Numbered from the stretch's first letter, positions 1-22,418 are shown. The stretch: 29,823 nucleotides of DNA from an uncultured Desulfobacterales bacterium (GCA_964545505.1 CAZJHF010000004.1:1-29823); one strand, 5' to 3'. Made by a program: numbers and translations. Notes: a model not told the origin generated them from the sequence alone.

Positions 1-1
1 C

Positions 2-874
2 GAATTCCCGGAATTAAATCTGCTAAAACGCGGCAAGGTTCGAGATGTTTATGATCTGGACACGTATCTGTTGATGATTGCAACCGACCGTATATCTGCA
101 TTCGATGTCGTCATGCCGGATCCGGTTCCGGATAAAGGCACCATTTTAACCCAGATTTCATTGTTCTGGTTTGATGTCATGCAGCCGCTTGTTCAAAATC
201 ATGTTATTGCCAGCGATGTCGAGCAGTATCCATCCGTTTGCGGGCCGTATGCAGATGTTTTGCGGGGCCGCAGTATGCTGGTTAAAAAAGCCCAGCCGCT
301 GCCGATTGAATGCATTGTTCGTGGCTATATTTCAGGCTCGGGATGGAAAGAGTATTGTGAGACAGGAGCCGTTTGCGGGATATCATTACCACAGGGATTG
401 AAAGAATCTGAGCAATTGCCCGAGCCCATTTTCACACCATCCACCAAAGCGGATCTTGGTGAACATGATATCAATATCGACTTTGACGAAGCGGCACGTC
501 TGATCGGCCGGGACCCGGCTGAAAAAATCAGGGACCTTAGTTTGGCAGTTTACAAAAAGGGCGCCGATCTGGCCGATGAACGCGACATCATCATTGCAGA
601 CACTAAATTTGAATTTGGTCAAATTGATGATGATATTATTCTGATTGACGAAATTTTAACACCGGATTCTTCGCGGTTTTGGCCGAAGGAGAGCTATCGC
701 CCGGGGGGGGCTCAAAAAAGCTATGATAAACAATTTGTTCGTGATTATTTAAATACATTGGATTGGGACAAAAAAGCACCCGGACCCGCCCTGCCCGAAA
801 CTGTCGTTTCAAAAACGCGTCAAAAATATCTGGATGCGCTAACCCAGCTGACCGGCAACAGTTATGGGCTCTAA
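2..874 (+). CDS. purC: Phosphoribosylaminoimidazole-succinocarboxamide (SAICAR) synthase, 5'-partial (start lies upstream of the window)
   Basis: The frame is open from base 2 ([19 protein letters not shown]...), upstream of the ORF-track start at 71. It contains [37 protein letters not shown] and [12 protein letters not shown], all characteristic of PurC. Confidence 0.97.
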
Positions 875-1874
875 ACCAGCTAATGGTCGCAAAAAAAGCA
901 AATCTATTGTGCCAGTTTCCGTAGCCCGTACGGATACGGTTTCACTGGCGGATATTGATACCCAGGATAGTACTTTTCGTATAACAACCCGCAGCCAGCT
1001 GGAAGATCTGCTGGACACGCTTCCGTCTTTTGGATTGCTGCATGAACCCGTATTGATCGAAAACACATCCGGTTACAGTGTTGTGTGCGGCTTTCGCCGG
1101 ATAGCCGCCTGCCGCCAGCTTCGGTGGAAATCGCTAAGCGCCAGAATCTTAACCGACGCCCAGGATCGTTTTCAAATAGCCCGGCTGGCCATTGCCGACA
1201 ACATTCTACAACGGCCGCTGAATTTGATCGAGACTTCCCGGGCTTTGAATCTGCTGATGGATACCAGCCAGGACCATCAACAGTTAAAAGAGGCGGCGCT
1301 GGTGCTGGGGTTGCCGGTCAATCCTGCTGTGGTTAAAAAACTTGAGCAGATCTGTCGACTTGAGATTCGCATTCAAGAAGGCATTCTTTCCGACACCATC
1401 AATTTGTCGATGGCCCTGGAACTTGGCAAAATGGATGCGCAGGATGCTGAAATGCTCGTAACGCTTTTCAACCGGCTTAAACTGGGGTTAAACAAGCAAA
1501 GGGAATTGCTCCTGTTCGTGACCGAGATTGCCAAACGCGAAGATATTTCCATCCGGCAATTAATTGCCGAACCACCGCTACAGGATATTCTGAAGAACAC
1601 GGATTTGGATCGTGCGACGCGACGCCAGCAAATAAGATCTATGTTGCGACAAAGAAGATATCCAGCCATCACCGAAGCCGAAGCGAATTATCAAAAGCAG
1701 GTCCGACAGCTCAAACTCGGCAAGCATATCCAGTTGCTTGCGCCCAGGGATTTTGAAGGCACCACTTATGCCCTGACACTGCATTTTAAAAATGAACAGG
1801 ACCTCGGTGATCTGAGTGCAAAGATTAATAAACTGCTCGAACATCCTGCCCTGGGAAAGATATTGAAGCACTAA
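864..1874 (+). CDS. ParB/Spo0J-like protein (ParB/Srx N-terminal domain plus HTH-like region), no adjacent parA
   Basis: GLLHEPV and [10 protein letters not shown] match the ParB GxxRxxA arginine patch, [13 protein letters not shown] resembles ENxxRxxLxxxE, and LVLGL...LEQICRL...[14 protein letters not shown] follows ParB HTH spacing. The ATG at 864 overlaps the purC stop; the exact start is uncertain. Confidence 0.8.
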
Positions 1875-1879
1875 ACAGC

Positions 1880-2983
1880 ATGCGAATATCAAAACTCTTT
1901 ATCGACCGGCAGGTCGCCGATCACCCTTTGACCCAATCCATCCAAGCGCGTTTGGATGTGCCTACGATTATTGTTCAAGATGCACGACAGGTGCACGAGA
2001 TGGTCGCATCGACAGCGGATCCTGTCCAAAGCGGGAAAGAAATTTTGTATTTATCCCGCAATCAGGGCGCATTTTTTAGACGCTGTCCGGGAACACGCAA
2101 CTATACATGCTGTGATTATCGCATACTGCACATCGGCACCTTTTGCTATATGGATTGTGCCTATTGTATCCTGCAGACCTATTTTCATCCGCCTGTCTTA
2201 GAGTATTTCGTTAATCATGAAGATCTTATTGCCGAACTCAACACCGTATTGGCGCAGAAAAGCATATTTCGAATCGGAACTGGTGAGTTTACCGACAGTA
2301 TGATCTGGACGTTGTGGACCGATGTCGTAAGGTTACTGGTCGACCGCTTTGCCGCTCAGCAGCACGCTGTCCTCGAGCTCAAAACCAAAACGACGGCCGT
2401 CGATCAACTGCAGGATCTAAATCACAATCGTAAGACTATTGCGGCCTGGTCATTAAACACCTCCAGGATTATCCGTACCGAAGAGCGCGGCACCGCCGGC
2501 CTTGCCGCCAGAATAGACGCGGCTGCCCGATGTGAGAAATGGGGCTATCCGCTGGCCTTTCACTTTGACCCGCTCATTATTTACGATGGCTGTGAGCAGG
2601 AGTACTTCCAAGTTATCGAAAATCTTTTTTCACGTCTGTCGGCCCAAAATATGGTCTGGATCAGCCTGGGGACTCTGCGATTCCCGCCAGCAATAAAACC
2701 ATTAATTCAGAAACGCTTTCCGGATTCAAAAATTGTGTATGCTGAAATCATCAGAGGTCGTGATGGAAAAATGCGGTACTTTAAACCGCTGCGCATTGAT
2801 CTGTATCGCAAAATCATCGAATGCATCCGGAATCATGCGCCGGATATCGTCGTTTATCTGTGTATGGAAGATGATGAGGTCTGGCAAAAAACACTGGGTT
2901 TTAAGCCCGATGATGTCGGCGGCCTTGCGCATATGCTGGACATGAGTGCAGCCCGGCTGTGCAATCTTAAACTCGGCGGATAA
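1880..2983 (+). CDS. Spore photoproduct lyase (SplB)-like radical SAM protein
   Basis: CxxxCxxC motif C89-YMD-C93-AY-C96 is followed by ILQTY (SplB: CHYCYLQT). Also RIGTGEFTDS, LELKTKT, WSLN and FHFDPLI. It begins 5 nt after the ParB-like stop. Confidence 0.85.
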   Translation: MRISKLFIDRQVADHPLTQSIQARLDVPTIIVQDARQVHEMVASTADPVQSGKEILYLSRNQGAFFRRCPGTRNYTCCDYRILHIGTFCYMDCAYCILQTYFHPPVLEYFVNHEDLIAELNTVLAQKSIFRIGTGEFTDSMIWTLWTDVVRLLVDRFAAQQHAVLELKTKTTAVDQLQDLNHNRKTIAAWSLNTSRIIRTEERGTAGLAARIDAAARCEKWGYPLAFHFDPLIIYDGCEQEYFQVIENLFSRLSAQNMVWISLGTLRFPPAIKPLIQKRFPDSKIVYAEIIRGRDGKMRYFKPLRIDLYRKIIECIRNHAPDIVVYLCMEDDEVWQKTLGFKPDDVGGLAHMLDMSAARLCNLKLGG

Positions 2984-2995
2984 GTGGCTGAGCCA

Positions 2996-3054
2996 GGTTA
3001 CAGTGTTCAGGTGTCAGTCCTTTTGATCGACCCTGACACCTGACACCTGAAACC
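2996..3054. repeat. Palindromic element A: 7-bp tandem-repeat arms (AGGTGTC / GACACCT family), 15-nt spacer
   Basis: Left arm ggttacagtgttcaggtgtcag (2996-3017) and right arm ctgacacctgacacctgaaacc (3033-3054) are inverted repeats at 18/22 positions. Confidence 0.9.
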
Positions 3055-3082: not shown

Positions 3083-3739
3083 GTGATGAATAAAATGAAG
3101 ACCTATAAACGACTGACATTAATTTGCCTGCTGGTTGTGCTGATGGGTACCGCCTGTTCAGCCGATACCGATTATCGGGTGAAATGGGTTGCAGACGGCG
3201 ACACAATTGTGCTGACTGAAGGGTCGAAGGTGCGCTACATCGGCATTAATGCGCCTGAACTGCCGCGTAAAGACCATGTTGGCGAACCTTACGCTGCTGA
3301 GGCCAAGCGGTTCAATGCCCGGTTGGTCAACCAAAAAAGTGTACGCCTCGAATTCGACATCGAACCCAACGACCGCTTTGAAAGACGCCTGGCCTATGTT
3401 TTTTTAAAAGACGGCACCTTCGTTAACGCTGAAATGCTCTCAAATGGCTACGCTTATTTGCTGTATGTGCGGCCAAATGTGAAGTATCAGGCCAAGTTGC
3501 TTGCTACGCAGCAGGCGGCGATGTCGGCCAAAAAGGGCATCTGGTCCAAATGGCGCGAGCCGAGTGCAACCTATATCGGCAACAAAAGATCACGCCGCTT
3601 CCATCTGGCCACTTGCTCATCGGGCAAACGCATCAAGCCCAAAAACCGTATCATCTTTAAGAGAAAATGGGATGCATACTGGGAAGGCTACGCACCGGCA
3701 AAACCGTGCATGCCGGTGTTTACAATACCGCAGGATTAA
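3083..3739 (+). CDS. Thermonuclease (SNase-like) family protein with N-terminal signal/anchor and C-terminal Ada-type metal-binding-like domain
   Basis: VADGDTI, VRYIGINAPE, DRFERRLAYV, VNAEMLSNGYA and AKKGIW are SNase motifs. Hydrophobic N-terminus LTLICLLVVLMGTAC. C-terminal GNKRSRRFHLATC...GYAPAKPC. The start may be ATG 3086 or 3095. Confidence 0.9.
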   Translation: MMNKMKTYKRLTLICLLVVLMGTACSADTDYRVKWVADGDTIVLTEGSKVRYIGINAPELPRKDHVGEPYAAEAKRFNARLVNQKSVRLEFDIEPNDRFERRLAYVFLKDGTFVNAEMLSNGYAYLLYVRPNVKYQAKLLATQQAAMSAKKGIWSKWREPSATYIGNKRSRRFHLATCSSGKRIKPKNRIIFKRKWDAYWEGYAPAKPCMPVFTIPQD

Positions 3740-14246: not shown

Positions 14247-15494
14247 TTATTTGAAAGACGGAATGATAGTTAAGGCACTCTTGACTATATGATCAACGAT
14301 CGCCTGGAGCCAGGCAGTCGCCAAATCGCCTTCGGATTTCGATAACTGCTGGATGACCGCGATGTAATCCAGGCCGCTTTTTTTGATGCCCTTGTGAACG
14401 GCCTCCAGAAAAGCATCCCGGTTGCTTACATCTGTGCTGATGTTCTGATAGGAGCCAAATAAATCCGCTAGCTGCGTCCAATTGGCGATGAGTTCCTGAC
14501 GTCGTTTTGTGTTGAGAGATGTTGATGCAGCCCGGCCATTCGGCGGCTGGGACGAATCATCATCATTTTTAAAGCAGAAACCCTCAAGGCGATTAATGCG
14601 TTCTGATATCGCCCAATTGAGTTTTTCTTTGAGCCCGGCCAGCACCAACTCCGAGAAATTCTCTGAAATAAACTGGCTGCGAACGTGGCAATACCACTGA
14701 TATAAAGCGATCAGATTGGCAATGTAAACCAGATTGTTGACAACTGTGCGGCGATCATTTCCGATTTTGCCGGACTGATATGACACATTGCCTTCTTTGG
14801 CTGATCCGCCGAGTATGAGGCGCCCGGGTCGGTGTTCATCTATGCGTAAGATCGTTCCGGCAGCCACCGTGGTTCCGTAAGTCAGCCGGCAGGGGCCCAC
14901 CAGCCCTCCCTGCCCGCCTAAGAATATGGGGGGCTGATTGATCAGGACCCCCTGGGGCACATCGCCGATCAAAGAGGCCGTCGCTTTATCCTGATTGGGG
15001 GTAAAGTTAAAATGGATATAAGAACTGCCGACTTCACTGTGATTCTTGCGGTTGGTACCACCGGCCATCAGGCAGTCACAAAAATTGATCAAACTACCAA
15101 GGGTAACAAATGGAAAAAGAATCGTGTGCTTGGTGCCGACGGTGTGGGCGATACTGGCCTGTTCTTCGAAAATACTGGCTTCACGCACGTGTGCGCCCGG
15201 CCCGGCCTTGGATTTTGCCAGAAAAACGGCCTTTTCAAAAAAGCCGCCCTTCAACTCAACGCCGGCACCCATCTGGCAATCTTTAACCGTGGCCGGCCCT
15301 TCGAACCCGATTTTCACGTTCCGGGAAATAACGGTGGAGTCACCGAAAATTTTAGACCCGGCGTAAAGCACGACGCCGTCTGCACAAATATGGTCTACGT
15401 TGACTTCTTCGCCGATTTGAATGCTATGCGGGCAGTCAATCCGAACCCCTTTCTCGATCAGCTGGTGTACTTTTGATTTTTTGGAAGGCGTCAT
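14247..15494 (-). CDS. GlmU-like left-handed beta-helix (hexapeptide) protein lacking the uridyltransferase domain
   Basis: The N-terminus (QLIEKGVRIDCPHSIQI) corresponds to the GlmU linker/LbH start. GPGAHVRE, VGTKHT, GSLINFCD, HFNFTPNQDKAT and LVGPCRLTYGTTVAAGT parallel the GlmU C-terminal domain. No GxGxRx(6)K nucleotidyltransferase motif is present. Confidence 0.75.
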   Translation of the reverse strand: MTPSKKSKVHQLIEKGVRIDCPHSIQIGEEVNVDHICADGVVLYAGSKIFGDSTVISRNVKIGFEGPATVKDCQMGAGVELKGGFFEKAVFLAKSKAGPGAHVREASIFEEQASIAHTVGTKHTILFPFVTLGSLINFCDCLMAGGTNRKNHSEVGSSYIHFNFTPNQDKATASLIGDVPQGVLINQPPIFLGGQGGLVGPCRLTYGTTVAAGTILRIDEHRPGRLILGGSAKEGNVSYQSGKIGNDRRTVVNNLVYIANLIALYQWYCHVRSQFISENFSELVLAGLKEKLNWAISERINRLEGFCFKNDDDSSQPPNGRAASTSLNTKRRQELIANWTQLADLFGSYQNISTDVSNRDAFLEAVHKGIKKSGLDYIAVIQQLSKSEGDLATAWLQAIVDHIVKSALTIIPSFK

Positions 15495-18234: not shown

Positions 18235-19173
18235 GTGAAAGCATTTACCATCATATTTGGCCTGACCTTCTTGCTGCCGCAATTGGGCAAAGCCGATATC
18301 ATTTTTTTTAAAGATGGGATGAGAACCGTTTGTCAGGAAAAAGCCTGGGAAGAAGGCCAGGAAGTTAAATGTGAATATGAAGGCACGGTATTGAGCTATC
18401 AAAAAAAAGATGTCCTCCGCATTCAGGAAATAAGAACCCCTAAAAAGACACCGCCTGCTAAACCCATAAAAGCACCTGAACAGCCGGTGGCAGAGACCGA
18501 AAAAAAGACACCGCCCGCTAAACCCATAAAAACACCTGAAAAATCGGCGGCAGAGACCGAAAAAAAGACGCTGCCTGCTAAACCGATAAAAACCTCTGAA
18601 CAGCCGGCCACAGACGTGGTAACGCCTACTGCTGATATCAAGGTATCTGGTTCAAAGCCGAAACCAGACGAAAAGAAACATTTAAAAGCCCCGCCGGTTC
18701 AGCCAACCAGCGTCTCCAACATAACAGGGCTTGAATTTTATAACCCGCGAAGACCGCAGAAATACTGGACCAGCGCTGTTTCCAAACACATAACCTTTAA
18801 AGAGGCCGTTGCGGCCCTGGCCAAACAGTATGATCGCAGCCCCGACTGGATTCAGCAGCACATGGGCGAAACCAATAATCTCGAAGAAATTCATCAGAAT
18901 CTGGCCCGCGACAAATTAAACGCAGCGGTTGAAACGAAGGTGCAGACCCCAAAAAATGTATCCGATACCCTTTTTTACAACCCGCGAAGACCGCACAAAT
19001 ACTGGACCAGCGCGACGGCAAAACACAAAACCTTAAAGGAAGCCGTGAGTGCATTATCGGCGGAGTACGATCGTTCGCAGCAGTGGGTTGAGCAATACAT
19101 GGGAGCGTCGAATCATCTGGACGAAATTCATCAAAACTTGAAAAAACAAAAATTATCGGAATCATCACCTTAA
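18235..19173 (+). CDS. Exported hypothetical protein with Pro/Lys-rich 20-aa tandem repeats and a duplicated C-terminal domain
   Basis: GTG start 9 nt after GGAGG, signal-peptide-like N-terminus MKAFTIIFGLTFLLPQLGKA, and internal repeats visible at both DNA and protein level. Confidence 0.88.
   Translation: MKAFTIIFGLTFLLPQLGKADIIFFKDGMRTVCQEKAWEEGQEVKCEYEGTVLSYQKKDVLRIQEIRTPKKTPPAKPIKAPEQPVAETEKKTPPAKPIKTPEKSAAETEKKTLPAKPIKTSEQPATDVVTPTADIKVSGSKPKPDEKKHLKAPPVQPTSVSNITGLEFYNPRRPQKYWTSAVSKHITFKEAVAALAKQYDRSPDWIQQHMGETNNLEEIHQNLARDKLNAAVETKVQTPKNVSDTLFYNPRRPHKYWTSATAKHKTLKEAVSALSAEYDRSQQWVEQYMGASNHLDEIHQNLKKQKLSESSP
18442..18614 (+). repeat. 60-bp coding tandem repeat, about 2.9 copies (KKTPPAKPIKxxEQxxAETE)
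   Basis: Units begin aaaaagac at 18442, 18502 and 18562 with near-identical sequence. Confidence 0.95.
18736..19152 (+). repeat. Internal duplication of a 60-aa domain (18736-18915 and 18973-19152)
   Basis: FYNPRRPQKYWTS...EIHQNL versus FYNPRRPHKYWTS...EIHQNL; 39/60 residues identical by manual count, offset 237 nt. Confidence 0.95.
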
Positions 19174-19392: not shown

Positions 19393-19983
19393 TTGCTGGT
19401 TGCGATTTTTTTGAAAGGGCCAGCGTTTATGATATCTTTTAATCGCGATGTAGTTGCACTCGTTCGGATTATTGCAAGCTGCTTGACAGCCGGGTTCCTG
19501 ATTTTCTTCATATCCTCTTTATCCGGTGAGGACCTGATTAAAAACAACAGCACCGTAGCTGATTTAGACCGGATATTAGCCGAAATTAATGTTGAATTGG
19601 ATAGCGGCATCGAAGACCGTATCCGGCAGCTGGGAGAAGTCCCTGCTATCAATCCTTACAAAAAATTCTACTGTGCTGAGCTTGCAAAAGAAATTCATGA
19701 GGTCTCCTATCTCACCGAAAAACAAAAAATCCTTTTTGACGCATACAATGTTCGCGATTTCGAAAACAAATCAAAGCGTCTGGTTTCTTATTCAGAAACA
19801 GCGAATATGGACGCCCTGATGAATGAGCTGGAAATCGTAAAAAGAGAACTGAAAAATTCTGTTAACCTGATTGATAAAAGGCGCAAGAAGCTCGTTCGCC
19901 AGAGGACAGCCTATATTATCCTCTTTTTCGTGCTCTGGATCGCCATCTATTTCTATTATAGCCGCGGGTTTTTGAAACGATAG
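19393..19983 (+). CDS. Hypothetical membrane protein: two terminal TM helices enclosing a helical soluble domain
   Basis: Hydrophobic segments VVALVRIIASCLTAGFLIFFISSL and AYIILFFVLWIAIYFYY. The start may be ATG 19429. Confidence 0.8.
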   Translation: MLVAIFLKGPAFMISFNRDVVALVRIIASCLTAGFLIFFISSLSGEDLIKNNSTVADLDRILAEINVELDSGIEDRIRQLGEVPAINPYKKFYCAELAKEIHEVSYLTEKQKILFDAYNVRDFENKSKRLVSYSETANMDALMNELEIVKRELKNSVNLIDKRRKKLVRQRTAYIILFFVLWIAIYFYYSRGFLKR

Positions 19984-20078: not shown

Positions 20079-21635
20079 ATGTATCAATCATTTTACAATC
20101 TGAAAATTAAGCCGTTTCAAATTACGACGGATCCCAAATTCCTCTGGCTCGGTGAGAAGCATAAAGAAGCCCTGGCCACTCTCAAGTACGGCGTCCTTGA
20201 AAACAAAGGGTTCCTCTTGCTCACCGGTGATGTGGGCACCGGCAAAACCGTTTTGATCCACGGCTTGATGAAGATTATCGATGTGTCTGCTATAGTGGCT
20301 GCCATCCCGGATCCCGGACTCAGCAGTATTGATTTTTTTAACTTTTTATCTGAAGAGTTTGGGATGAACCGGCGCTTTGATAGCAAGGGCGCTTTTCTGA
20401 TTCATCTAAAGCACTTTCTTTACAAGGCTTCTTCCGAAAACAAAAAGGTCCTGCTGGTTATTGATGAAGCCCAGAGGCTAAACCACGAGTTGATCGAGCA
20501 AATCCGGCTTTTGTCAAACATCGAGATGGATAACCGTAAATTGATCAACATTTTTTTTGTCGGGCAAAGCGAATTTAATAAAATGCTCAGCGAGGAACGT
20601 CACAGAGCGGTTCGGCAAAGAATTAGCGTTAGCTATCATATCGACCCACTGACCGAGCAGGAAACCCGCCAGTATATCAATCATCGCCTCAATGTTGCCG
20701 GCTGCAAAAAAGAACTTTTTAAATCCGAAGCCGTGCGCAGAATTTATTCATTTTCCCACGGCTATCCTCGACTGATTAATATCATCTGCGACCACGCCTT
20801 GCTTACCGGCTATTCCAGCGGAAAAAAAGTTATCGATGCAGGTGTCATCTTGGAGTGTGAAAAAGAGCTTAGAATCCCCACCGACCAGTCGATGACGCAG
20901 GATAAGAAAACCGAAATTTTTGAGCTCAAGGAAGAAAATCCCTTTAATGTGCTTCAGAATCAATCTACGGGAAAGCGCTTCGGATATATTGCAGTTATTG
21001 TTTTGCTGCTCCTGGCAATCGGTTATTTCTTATTTACGATGCAATCGACGGACGAACCCCGCTGGAAAATGGAGGAAATCGCGCCGCAATCCTATGACTC
21101 CCCGACGTTAAAAGCCAAAGAGGCTTTCGTTCCAGGCGTCGTCGGTGAACAAGCCGCTGAAAAAGATCAACCGAAGCGCAAGCGCTTTGATGAGCAGGCC
21201 ATTGAAGGCAAAAAAATCGAAACATCCAAACAGTCGAACTCGCAGGGTCAAACAGAAGGCGCCACAACAATTCCTAAGGTCAAGCCATTTCCAGATCGAA
21301 AAATCATTATTTACTTCAACCACAACTCCAACGATCTACCCGAACAGGCTTACGAAATGCTTGACCGCATTGCCGGCTTTATGGTCAGCAACCCGGATGC
21401 CATCATCAATATCAGCGGCTATACGGATTCATCCGGTGCCTATAGTTATAATATGAGCGTTTCTCAATTTAGGGCCAACATGGTCAAAGGCTATCTGGTG
21501 GGCAAAGGCGTTGATCCTTTTAAGATCGAAGCGCTCGGACTGGGCCCCAAGAATCCGATTGCCAGCAATACGACTGAAAAAGGCCGCCAAACAAACCGCC
21601 GGGTGGAAATTGAGTTGAATATCGACAAACCCTAG
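20079..21635 (+). CDS. ExeA/GspA-like AAA ATPase with TM helix and C-terminal OmpA-like peptidoglycan-binding domain
   Basis: YQSFYNLKIKPF N-terminus, Walker A GDVGTGKT, Walker B LLVIDEAQ, GYPRLINIICDHALL and TM IAVIVLLLLAIGYFLF. OmpA-type C-terminus: IYFNHNS...GYTDSSG...N...S..RA..V..YL...NRRVEI. Confidence 0.9.
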   Translation: MYQSFYNLKIKPFQITTDPKFLWLGEKHKEALATLKYGVLENKGFLLLTGDVGTGKTVLIHGLMKIIDVSAIVAAIPDPGLSSIDFFNFLSEEFGMNRRFDSKGAFLIHLKHFLYKASSENKKVLLVIDEAQRLNHELIEQIRLLSNIEMDNRKLINIFFVGQSEFNKMLSEERHRAVRQRISVSYHIDPLTEQETRQYINHRLNVAGCKKELFKSEAVRRIYSFSHGYPRLINIICDHALLTGYSSGKKVIDAGVILECEKELRIPTDQSMTQDKKTEIFELKEENPFNVLQNQSTGKRFGYIAVIVLLLLAIGYFLFTMQSTDEPRWKMEEIAPQSYDSPTLKAKEAFVPGVVGEQAAEKDQPKRKRFDEQAIEGKKIETSKQSNSQGQTEGATTIPKVKPFPDRKIIIYFNHNSNDLPEQAYEMLDRIAGFMVSNPDAIINISGYTDSSGAYSYNMSVSQFRANMVKGYLVGKGVDPFKIEALGLGPKNPIASNTTEKGRQTNRRVEIELNIDKP

Positions 21636-22269: not shown

Positions 22270-22301
22270 TATTTTAAAATTCCTTCTTTATTACTGATTT
22301 T

Positions 22302-22418
22302 AGGTGTCAGGTGTCAGTGTTCAGGTGTCAGCAAAAGGAAAATGAAGATGACAATATTAGCTAGATTAAGCCTTCTGTCCCATGTTCCCTGACACCTGAC
22401 ACCCGATACCTGAAACCT
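22302..22418. repeat. Palindromic element E: same 7-bp family as element A, 30-nt arms, 57-nt spacer
   Basis: Left: aggtgtc aggtgtc agtgttc aggtgtc ag (22302-22331). Right: ctgacac ctgacac ccgatac ctgaaac ct (22389-22418). Confidence 0.92.

Follow-up and report, generated by a model that had tools for sequence, protein, structure and literature searches.

A recurrent pairing of an orphan ParB-like protein with an SPL-fold radical SAM enzyme in Desulfobacterota

Why should a protein of the ParB fold be encoded, with no ParA nearby, between a gene of purine biosynthesis and a relative of spore photoproduct (SP) lyase? The question is raised by a stretch of 29,823 nucleotides from an uncultured Desulfobacterales bacterium (GCA_964545505.1 CAZJHF010000004.1:1-29823; the whole stretch is referred to below as the window), in which purC, the gene for a ParB-like protein (ParBL) and the gene for an SPL-family radical S-adenosylmethionine (SAM) enzyme (SPLL) follow one another on the same strand. 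Orphan ParB-fold proteins are now seen as common, and few of them have a known job. Comparison of the locus with its relatives leads us to a tentative answer, held with somewhat less than even confidence, that ParBL may direct SPLL to double-stranded DNA or activate it there. The adjacency of the two genes, which carries this reading, recurs in several deep lineages and is probably ancestral in Desulfobacterota, judging from the sequences compared.

Organisation of the locus

The three genes that raise the question are arranged as follows:

1..874, plus strand: purC (SAICAR synthetase), 3' part (Pfam SAICAR_synt, E 5e-71; NCBIfam PRK13961, 399 bits)
864..1874, plus strand: ParBL, ParB-like protein of 336 amino acids, an orphan member of the ParB/Noc/KorB class; an NTPase-fold domain at the N-terminus precedes a helix-turn-helix (HTH) DNA-binding domain and a family-specific C-terminal domain
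1880..2983, plus strand: SPLL, SPL-family radical SAM enzyme of 367 amino acids (Pfam SPL; matches to SP lyase structures)

The window begins inside purC, which is therefore truncated at the 5' end. The ParBL open reading frame (ORF) overlaps the end of purC by 11 nt (864-874, with the purC stop at 874), and a spacer of 5 nt (1875-1879) separates it from SPLL; both values coincide exactly with those given in an earlier, preliminary description of this DNA. Promoter-like and terminator-like sites were searched for on the plus strand between the three genes and none was found, which fits their co-transcription. A chance arrangement of ORFs is excluded, because full-length homologues of both proteins number in the hundreds to thousands.

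A search for a parA-type Walker A motif in the window gave no match, the remaining genes are of housekeeping type with no origin-region gene among them, and the nearest relatives of the window are metagenome-assembled genomes (MAGs) of Desulfobacterales. The earlier statements that parA and origin-region genes are missing and that the host is of Desulfobacterales type thus hold, and the preliminary description proved accurate wherever its observations could be checked.

Conservation of the ParBL-SPLL pair

Neighbourhoods were collected in two scans, one of genomes with the family alignment (80 loci) and one of metagenomes with a 10-sequence alignment of a different (SGFRR) clade (80 more). Short exact peptide patterns served to retrieve the loci, which are not independent of one another in phylogenetic terms; the flanks extended over 5-6 kb, and SPLL possibly lies just past some of the stretches that consist of genes for a TetR regulator, an acyl-CoA synthetase and a symporter. 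Of the 124 informative loci (of 160), 53 have SPLL downstream of ParBL and on its strand, far above chance. The genes that follow ParBL are distributed as follows:

31 loci: SPLL within 300 nt
19 loci: a TetR-family gene, then SPLL
3 loci: another ORF, then SPLL
49 loci: a TetR gene (usually with acyl-CoA synthetase and symporter genes), no SPLL in the flank
22 loci: something else

The TetR regulator is the commonest gene directly 3' of ParBL in Desulfobacterales (68/124 informative loci; e.g., L021:9453-10082), and beyond it lies either SPLL or the pair of acyl/acetyl-CoA synthetase and sodium:solute symporter. After dereplication by ParBL identity the association persists:

90% identity: SPLL downstream in 47/99 clusters
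70% identity: SPLL downstream in 19/58 clusters
50% identity: SPLL downstream in 7/22 clusters

Directly adjacent pairs are present in all seven of the 50% clusters with SPLL downstream. They belong to the clade of the window, to L045/L056, to L062, to a Syntrophales-type clade and to L078, and the ParBLs of these lineages are mutually 22-35% identical (the comparisons cover all but L045 against L056). At least three unrelated gene sets flank the adjacent pairs: the purC block of Desulfobacterales; a clpPX/GH57/Rho_N/GT2 block in the Syntrophales-type loci, where the pair is adjacent in 10/10 informative cases; and, in L078, a 2-hydroxyacid dehydrogenase gene with a PNP-like gene. The ParBL of the latter locus (L078:2093-3073) is 27% identical to that of the window, has GWKR in place of GFRR and is encoded 71 nt 5' of SPLL. 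The MAG from which L078 comes is labelled Eubacteriales, and this taxonomic label is doubtful. In L045 and L056 the pair is intact though what lies 3' of SPLL is not the block of staphylococcal-nuclease (SNase) homologue and EF-G genes that follows it elsewhere.

The simplest history is that the pair was kept in several deep branches while its surroundings were reshuffled, and that interruption, or division into a purC-ParBL block and an SPLL-SNase-EF-G block, took place in many Desulfobacterales. A functional partnership is favoured because adjacency was retained over such distances, as expected of linked genes; at the same time, their frequent separation means that co-transcription of ParBL and SPLL is dispensable. 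The preliminary description had proposed a two-component module and had asked whether its genes keep company elsewhere. They do, repeatedly and amid varied flanks, so that this part of the proposal stands, and two of the observations it had named as fatal, homologues that are rarely adjacent or a ParBL that clusters with the chromosomal ParB and its parA, are not what we see. An obligate module, however, is not borne out: TetR often separates the two genes, and some loci have SPLL but no ParBL.

The strongest competitor is that the two genes are mere neighbours, ParBL being part of the purC block and SPLL part of an SPLL-SNase-EF-G-tlyA-dxs block, with the two blocks abutting in the lineage of the window. 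ParBL would then be a Noc-like, nucleoid-associated, cell-cycle or regulatory orphan ParB, and SPLL an independent enzyme. The link of purC with ParBL is essentially universal in Desulfobacterales (69/69 genome and 59/60 metagenome loci), that of SPLL with SNase/EF-G holds with or without ParBL (L082, L164-L167), and the junction between ParBL and SPLL is the one most often broken or TetR-interrupted. Nor were fusions of the two proteins found among the best 150 representatives of the ParBL family. The adjacency of SPLL with SNase, itself an exported protein, moreover illustrates that conserved adjacency need not mean a shared intracellular function. What speaks against coincidental neighbourhood is that adjacency survives reshuffling in 10/10 informative Syntrophales-type loci and in L078, L045, L056 and L062. 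On balance we regard mere neighbourhood as possible, if somewhat less likely than a partnership.

ParBL, an orphan ParB-fold protein

Residues ~20-228 of ParBL align with the N-terminal and HTH domains of Noc and ParB (family profile against PDB, E 4e-12). The AF2 model (predicted local distance difference test, pLDDT, 87.9) matches Noc, ParB and KorB over ~200 columns (Foldseek E 6e-8, prob 1.0), with KorB 8qa9 among the best structural matches (TMt 0.51-0.52). Scores against the curated models stay under their thresholds: Pfam ParB_N gives 21.6 bits, under the gathering score of 26.3, TIGR00180 (parB_part) 37 bits against a cut-off of 58.45, and the Noc model TIGR04285 44.9 bits against a cut-off of 315. 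The following segments were delimited:

1089..1100, plus strand: GFRR, residues 76-79, counterpart of the GERRxR arginine patch of ParB (alignment to Noc/ParB)
1197..1214, plus strand: DNILQR, residues 112-117, counterpart of ParB box III, ENLQR (profile alignment)
1221..1463, plus strand: predicted HTH DNA-binding region, residues ~120-200, including the ParB-type '...L.LP..IQ..I...' (Noc/Spo0J profile alignment; Foldseek over ~200 columns)
1452..1871, plus strand: family-specific C-terminal domain, residues 197-336 (AF2 model of the domain alone, pLDDT 89)

The GFRR patch is borne out by the profile alignment, and the HTH-like region by both the profile and the Foldseek alignments; the two had been recognised before. 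At the position of GERRxR the protein reads GFRRIA, that is, the Gly and two Arg are retained, with Phe in place of Glu and Ala in place of the third Arg. GFRR is invariant in the alignments A1 and A2 and across the two subfamilies, which are only ~25% identical, and occurs in 369/389 family members; GERR occurs in 0/389. Mutation of the Glu of GERR in the ParB proteins of Caulobacter and Myxococcus impairs hydrolysis of cytidine triphosphate (CTP), and by this precedent the near-universal Phe suggests a switch that hydrolyses slowly or not at all. For CTP binding, the Gly and both retained Arg residues are important (PMC12207404). Box III has the consensus DNxLQR, in which N113 and R117 do not vary in either ParBL subfamily, and the Arg of box I is retained in the Desulfobacterales subfamily only. 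The Syntrophales subfamily has no N-terminal extension.

The C-terminal domain is conserved in both subfamilies and carries the motifs LKLG.N..RE.L, RRYP and FEG; in the AF2 model six helices are followed by a two-strand, two-helix end. A comparison of its 140 residues with PDB yielded no significant match (best E 1.4, prob 0.11), and this domain, confidently modelled as it is, thus offers no functional clue.

An exhaustive profile search (E <=1e-30) places the family at ~1460 representative clusters at 50% identity, most of which are <45% identical to any ParBL in the sampled loci. The best 150 of these representatives are 203-351 amino acids long and cover the full length, save for one fragment of 203 amino acids. 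The motif that activates ParA (LG[RK]GL / GLGxG) was found in 0/389 family members, and a parA-type Walker A motif, KGGxGK[ST], near ParBL in 1/160 loci only. That sole case is an ORF of ParA/MinD type with KGGVGKT in L020, from ~7480 onward, ~600 nt 3' of ParBL. Judged by its sequence, ParBL is a true orphan ParB and not a partition ParB, since it has neither a ParA nor the ParA-activating motif, scores below threshold, and combines an altered arginine patch with an unrelated C-terminal domain.

As a candidate parS site we considered CGGCAATTAATTGCCG, the sole perfect 16-bp palindrome in the window, located at 1554-1569 inside ParBL. It was rejected: the site is unconserved even in a 94%-identical relative, and it encodes RQLIAE.

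Could ParBL instead be a transcriptional regulator of KorB/VirB type, acting on the operon that includes SPLL and linked to the enzyme by regulation only? A ParB fold with an HTH and no ParA partner would suit such a role, as would the place of KorB among the best structural matches, and CTP-dependent regulators of the ParB/KorB class are known (PMC10770331, PMC11790492). ParBL lies, however, inside the transcription unit, 3' of purC, no conserved operator-like palindrome was found, and the protein is kept without a nearby SPLL in many genomes. We therefore hold a purely regulatory link to be quite unlikely.

SPLL, a distinct SPL-fold subfamily

SPLL is matched by Pfam SPL (PF20903) with 105 bits and by the structures of Geobacillus SP lyase with E 4e-19 (single sequence) and 7e-31 (profile), the alignable part being residues 79-290; no sequence alignment to SP lyase was obtained for its N- and C-terminal thirds. 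The score against TIGR04070, the SplB equivalog model, is 119.9 bits, far under the cut-off of 400, and that against TIGR03886 ('lyase_spl_fam') 41 bits, with a cut-off of 437.55. Three segments stand out:

2084..2113, plus strand: conserved segment, invariant in 148/148 SPLL sequences
2144..2167, plus strand: radical SAM motif CX3CX2C (C89, C93, C96), by alignment to SP lyase, in keeping with the SPL fold family
2276..2287, plus strand: GTGE, residues 133-136, GGE-like, by alignment to 4FHG (C140S) and 4RH0 chains

Y95 is the counterpart of Tyr96 of SplB, which is thus kept, whereas I97 stands in place of Tyr98; among the 148 sequences the latter position is Ile in 84 and Val in 64, and Tyr in none. 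The position of Cys140, the H-donor of SplB, is occupied by E136 (148/148) and not by the Bacillus-type Cys. Eight cysteines are conserved in SPLL (C69, C77, C78, C89, C93, C96, C218 and C328), in comparison with only four in SP lyases (PMC3467042). Of the five beyond CX3CX2C, four are invariant and C218 is present in 147/148 sequences. The signature of the subfamily is CPGT-x4-CC, GTGE[FL][TS]DS and ELKTK.

By these sequence characters SPLL represents a subfamily of the SPL fold that is distinct and highly conserved; it is no orthologue of SplB, since neither Cys140 nor Tyr98 is found and the equivalog score falls short; the enzyme had been called SPL-like rather than SplB from the beginning, and correctly so. 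We know of no SPL-family member other than SplB with an assigned function, and of none for the homologues of non-spore-formers.

We have also weighed whether SPLL might be a genuine SP-type lyase after all, repairing SP-like thymine dimers in non-sporulating anaerobes (e.g., after desiccation) with an upstream Cys as H-donor, in which case ParBL would be irrelevant. The SPL fold and motif and the retained Tyr96 are in line with this. The invariant C69, C77 and C78 lie roughly at the alternative Cys site of clostridial SplB (PMC3467042; the comparison is with Cys77, in a region unalignable to SP lyase), and the invariant R299-Y300 could match the Arg304-Tyr305 tip of the beta-hairpin that flips the lesion in SplB, again within an unalignable third of the protein. 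On the other side stand the Glu at Cys140, a TIGR04070 score of 120 bits for a cut-off of 400, and eight conserved cysteines versus four. Nor, judging by taxonomy only, are the hosts, which are Desulfobacterota MAGs (Desulfobacterales and Syntrophales types), expected to form endospores. All in all, a classical SP lyase appears improbable.

Gene neighbourhood and the purC link

The purC homologue lies 5' of ParBL in 69/69 non-Syntrophales genome loci with upstream sequence and in 59/60 metagenome loci, and in most of them abuts or overlaps ParBL. The Syntrophales-type loci are without purC; ParBL is preceded there by clpP, clpX and genes for a GH57 enzyme, a Rho_N protein and a GT2 glycosyltransferase. 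Linkage to purC is a habit of operon structure in one order, Desulfobacterales, and does not hint at a purine substrate, since purC is not found near the pairs of Syntrophales type. A module acting on purine or nucleotide metabolism, which the preliminary description had entertained from this link and which the purC-ParBL overlap in nearly all Desulfobacterales loci might recommend, is therefore barely credible and already largely refuted by the neighbourhood data: neither the Syntrophales-type loci nor L078 have purC near the pair, no other conserved purine gene was found nearby, and the ParB fold with its HTH points to DNA.

Further 5' of purC-ParBL in Desulfobacterales (L001:2573-4948 and equivalents) a conserved trio is encoded on the same strand, comprising a Ras/Arf-like small GTPase, a protein with DUF4388 (PatA_N) and a cyclic nucleotide monophosphate (cNMP)-binding domain, and a PilZ protein. 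It is preceded by uvrC and mdh, and the whole may be one long operon.

On the other side of the pair, the gene that most steadily lies 3' of SPLL in Desulfobacterales encodes an SNase homologue, and at times it overlaps the SPLL stop. In the window it is represented by:

3083..3739, plus strand: SNase homologue, exported, signal-peptide or lipoprotein-like (Pfam SNase, E 3.5e-23)

An N-terminal hydrophobic signal is conserved among its homologues (L082:7104-7739; L164:6080-6769; L166:6104-6742). We considered this nuclease as a third member of the module and rejected it on account of the conserved signal peptide; as an exported protein, it is probably outside any intracellular module. The SNase of the window has a lipobox-like LMGTAC and a conserved C-terminal tail, RFH..C...W..F..C..C, and gives a domain-level match to 'SNc+LTD' in PADLOC.

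An origin of the pair from a phage or another mobile element was likewise rejected, as the motif patterns applied to viral contigs recovered relatives of neither protein. Neither family was found among the PADLOC defence models, and SPLL had no match in PHROG.

One context of SPLL has a nucleic-acid flavour and no ParBL. In L163 (834-7112) SPLL lies 4 nt 3' of the gene for a cNMP/CBS/DUF294 protein, itself preceded by that for a 729-amino-acid protein with an RNase_T exonuclease domain, and is followed by a NucS_C/YhcG_C-like nuclease gene. In the Syntrophales-type loci an ORF of Y1_Tnp (IS200/RAYT-like) abuts the SPLL stop.

Proposed mechanism and its standing

In the mechanism we propose, ParBL works independently of ParA, probably dimerises and would bind DNA through its HTH, with the N-terminal ParB fold serving as a nucleotide-gated switch. 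Nucleotide would be bound and hydrolysed slowly or not at all, as the Glu of GERR is Phe in nearly all members. ParBL would target or activate SPLL on double-stranded DNA. The substrate on which SPLL carries out its radical SAM chemistry would most likely be a nucleic acid, yet not the classical spore photoproduct, a suggestion based on the GGE-like motif at the position of the H-donor Cys, the missing Tyr98 and the five extra conserved cysteines. These cysteines could hold a second metal site or else relay the radical. In all this the gene arrangement, the folds, the motifs and the neighbourhood counts are what the analysis shows, whereas the binding of nucleotide and of DNA, DNA as the substrate and any physical or functional coupling are inferred. 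The core of this scheme, ParBL as the DNA-targeting or activating partner, is the part we tentatively prefer. The scheme in its complete form, with a ParBL clamp locked or slow in hydrolysis that recruits or activates a two-metal-site SPLL on double-stranded chromosomal DNA of non-sporulating anaerobes, we consider rather unlikely.

Several observations weigh against a partnership of the two proteins. A TetR gene stands between them in 19 loci and follows ParBL without SPLL in 49, and about half to two thirds of the ParBL lineages have no SPLL adjacency. When six look-ups were centred on SPLL, no upstream ParBL was seen in 4/5 distinct contexts, and in most of these contexts the genes after SPLL are those of the exported SNase and of the EF-G/tlyA/dxs block. 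ParBL-SPLL fusions, which would have been a telling sign in the sense of the preliminary description, number none in the best 150 of ~1460 representatives. No conserved parS-like site was found when the palindromes of the window were compared with relatives. Within ParBL, the third Arg of GERRxR is Ala, and the Syntrophales subfamily has lost the Arg of box I. Nucleotide specificity is, moreover, not predictable from sequence, according to a survey of orphan ParB-fold proteins (bioRxiv 10.1101/2025.10.10.680097). Finally, the mobile-element context of the precedents discussed below is missing here, and the flanking genes are housekeeping ones.

If the scheme were true, it would be the first ParB-dependent radical SAM system for DNA repair or modification, and the first function for an orphan ParB family of the core genome that counts ~1460 clusters. 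Cooperation of ParBL and SPLL would extend the idea of a ParB-clamp accessory from phages and defence islands to core chromosomes and to radical SAM chemistry; it would provide a first functional handle on a large protein family of Desulfobacterota, and a hint that bacteria of anoxic sediments have a DNA lesion or modification of their own. Should the two not cooperate, they would still define two uncharacterised families, each well delimited and recognisable by a clear signature in its sequence.

Other features of the window

Apart from the exported SNase, the genes of the window encode EF-G, tlyA, dxs, ispA, xseA, glmM, a sugar dehydrogenase, an AAA+OmpA protein, a NUDIX protein, an aminotransferase, a SprT-like protein and MscK. 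Just 3' of the SPLL stop lies a repeat:

3008..3049, no strand assigned: inverted repeat resembling repetitive extragenic palindromic (REP) elements, with GGTGTCA heptamers; probable transcript-end or repeat element

A second REP-like copy was found at 22301-22405; both copies are intergenic and consist of tandem GGTGTCA/TGACACC heptamers. The sequence CAGGTGTCAG has 9 matches in the window at <=1 mismatch versus 0.89 expected. Between 17000 and 21700 the GC content is lowered (0.42-0.47), with a strong AT skew at 18-19 kb. ORFs at 18235-19173 and 19393-19983, which adjoin the gene for the AAA_22+OmpA protein (20079-21635), have no Pfam match, and a further ORF without a match is located at 14247-15494.

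Comparison with known systems

ParBL shares with the chromosomal ParB, Noc and KorB clamps an N-terminal fold and HTH alignable over ~200 residues, the G-x-R-R and N...R elements, a similar length and the order of N-terminal, DNA-binding and C-terminal parts. It departs from them in having GFRR (369/389) and never GERR, in the Ala at the third Arg, and in its scores below the cut-offs of TIGR00180 and TIGR04285. The C-terminal 140 residues are without a PDB match, and the gene is apparently co-transcribed with purC; no ParA-activating motif, neighbouring parA or parS-like site was found.

SPLL, for its part, resembles SplB (TIGR04070; PDB 4FHC-4FHG) in CX3CX2C, the Pfam SPL match, the alignable residues 79-290 and the equivalent of Tyr96. 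Unlike SplB it has Glu for Cys140, Ile/Val for Tyr98 and five additional conserved cysteines, its termini are unalignable, it reaches 120 of 400 bits, and its hosts are Desulfobacterota. The SPL-family proteins of non-spore-formers gathered in TIGR03886 are, like SPLL, uncharacterised SplB relatives outside the endospore formers; the match to them is weak, and SPLL forms a separate subfamily with its own signature.

For the pair as such we found, in the literature searched, no paper that links a ParB protein with an SPL or another radical SAM enzyme, and in the large recent survey of orphan ParB-fold proteins (bioRxiv 10.1101/2025.10.10.680097) a partner of radical SAM or SPL type is not mentioned. 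ParB-fold accessories of other enzymes are nevertheless on record. DpdB, a ParB-fold NTPase, is required for the 7-deazaguanine DNA modification by DpdA (PMC10164549). It differs from ParBL in its DGQQR motif, its SspE-like helical C-terminal domain and its place in a restriction-modification island, whereas ParBL has GFRR, an HTH, a different C-terminal domain and a neighbourhood in which no defence context was found.

Another case is the phage thymine dioxygenase 5mYOX176 with ParB176, where, as here, a ParB-fold gene adjoins that of a DNA-acting enzyme (PMC13229309). ParB176 is needed for the activity of 5mYOX176 on double-stranded DNA, with both its N- and C-terminal domains required (PMC13229309), and the discussion in that paper cites the KorB-KorA clamp, a third analogy. 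The phage ParBs have no DNA-binding domain and serve an Fe(II)/2OG dioxygenase; ParBL, in contrast, has an HTH, is core-chromosomal and would have a radical SAM enzyme as its partner. An accessory of this kind is thus itself known, and what is plausibly new in the Desulfobacterota pair is the possible coupling of a ParB-fold accessory with a radical SAM enzyme.

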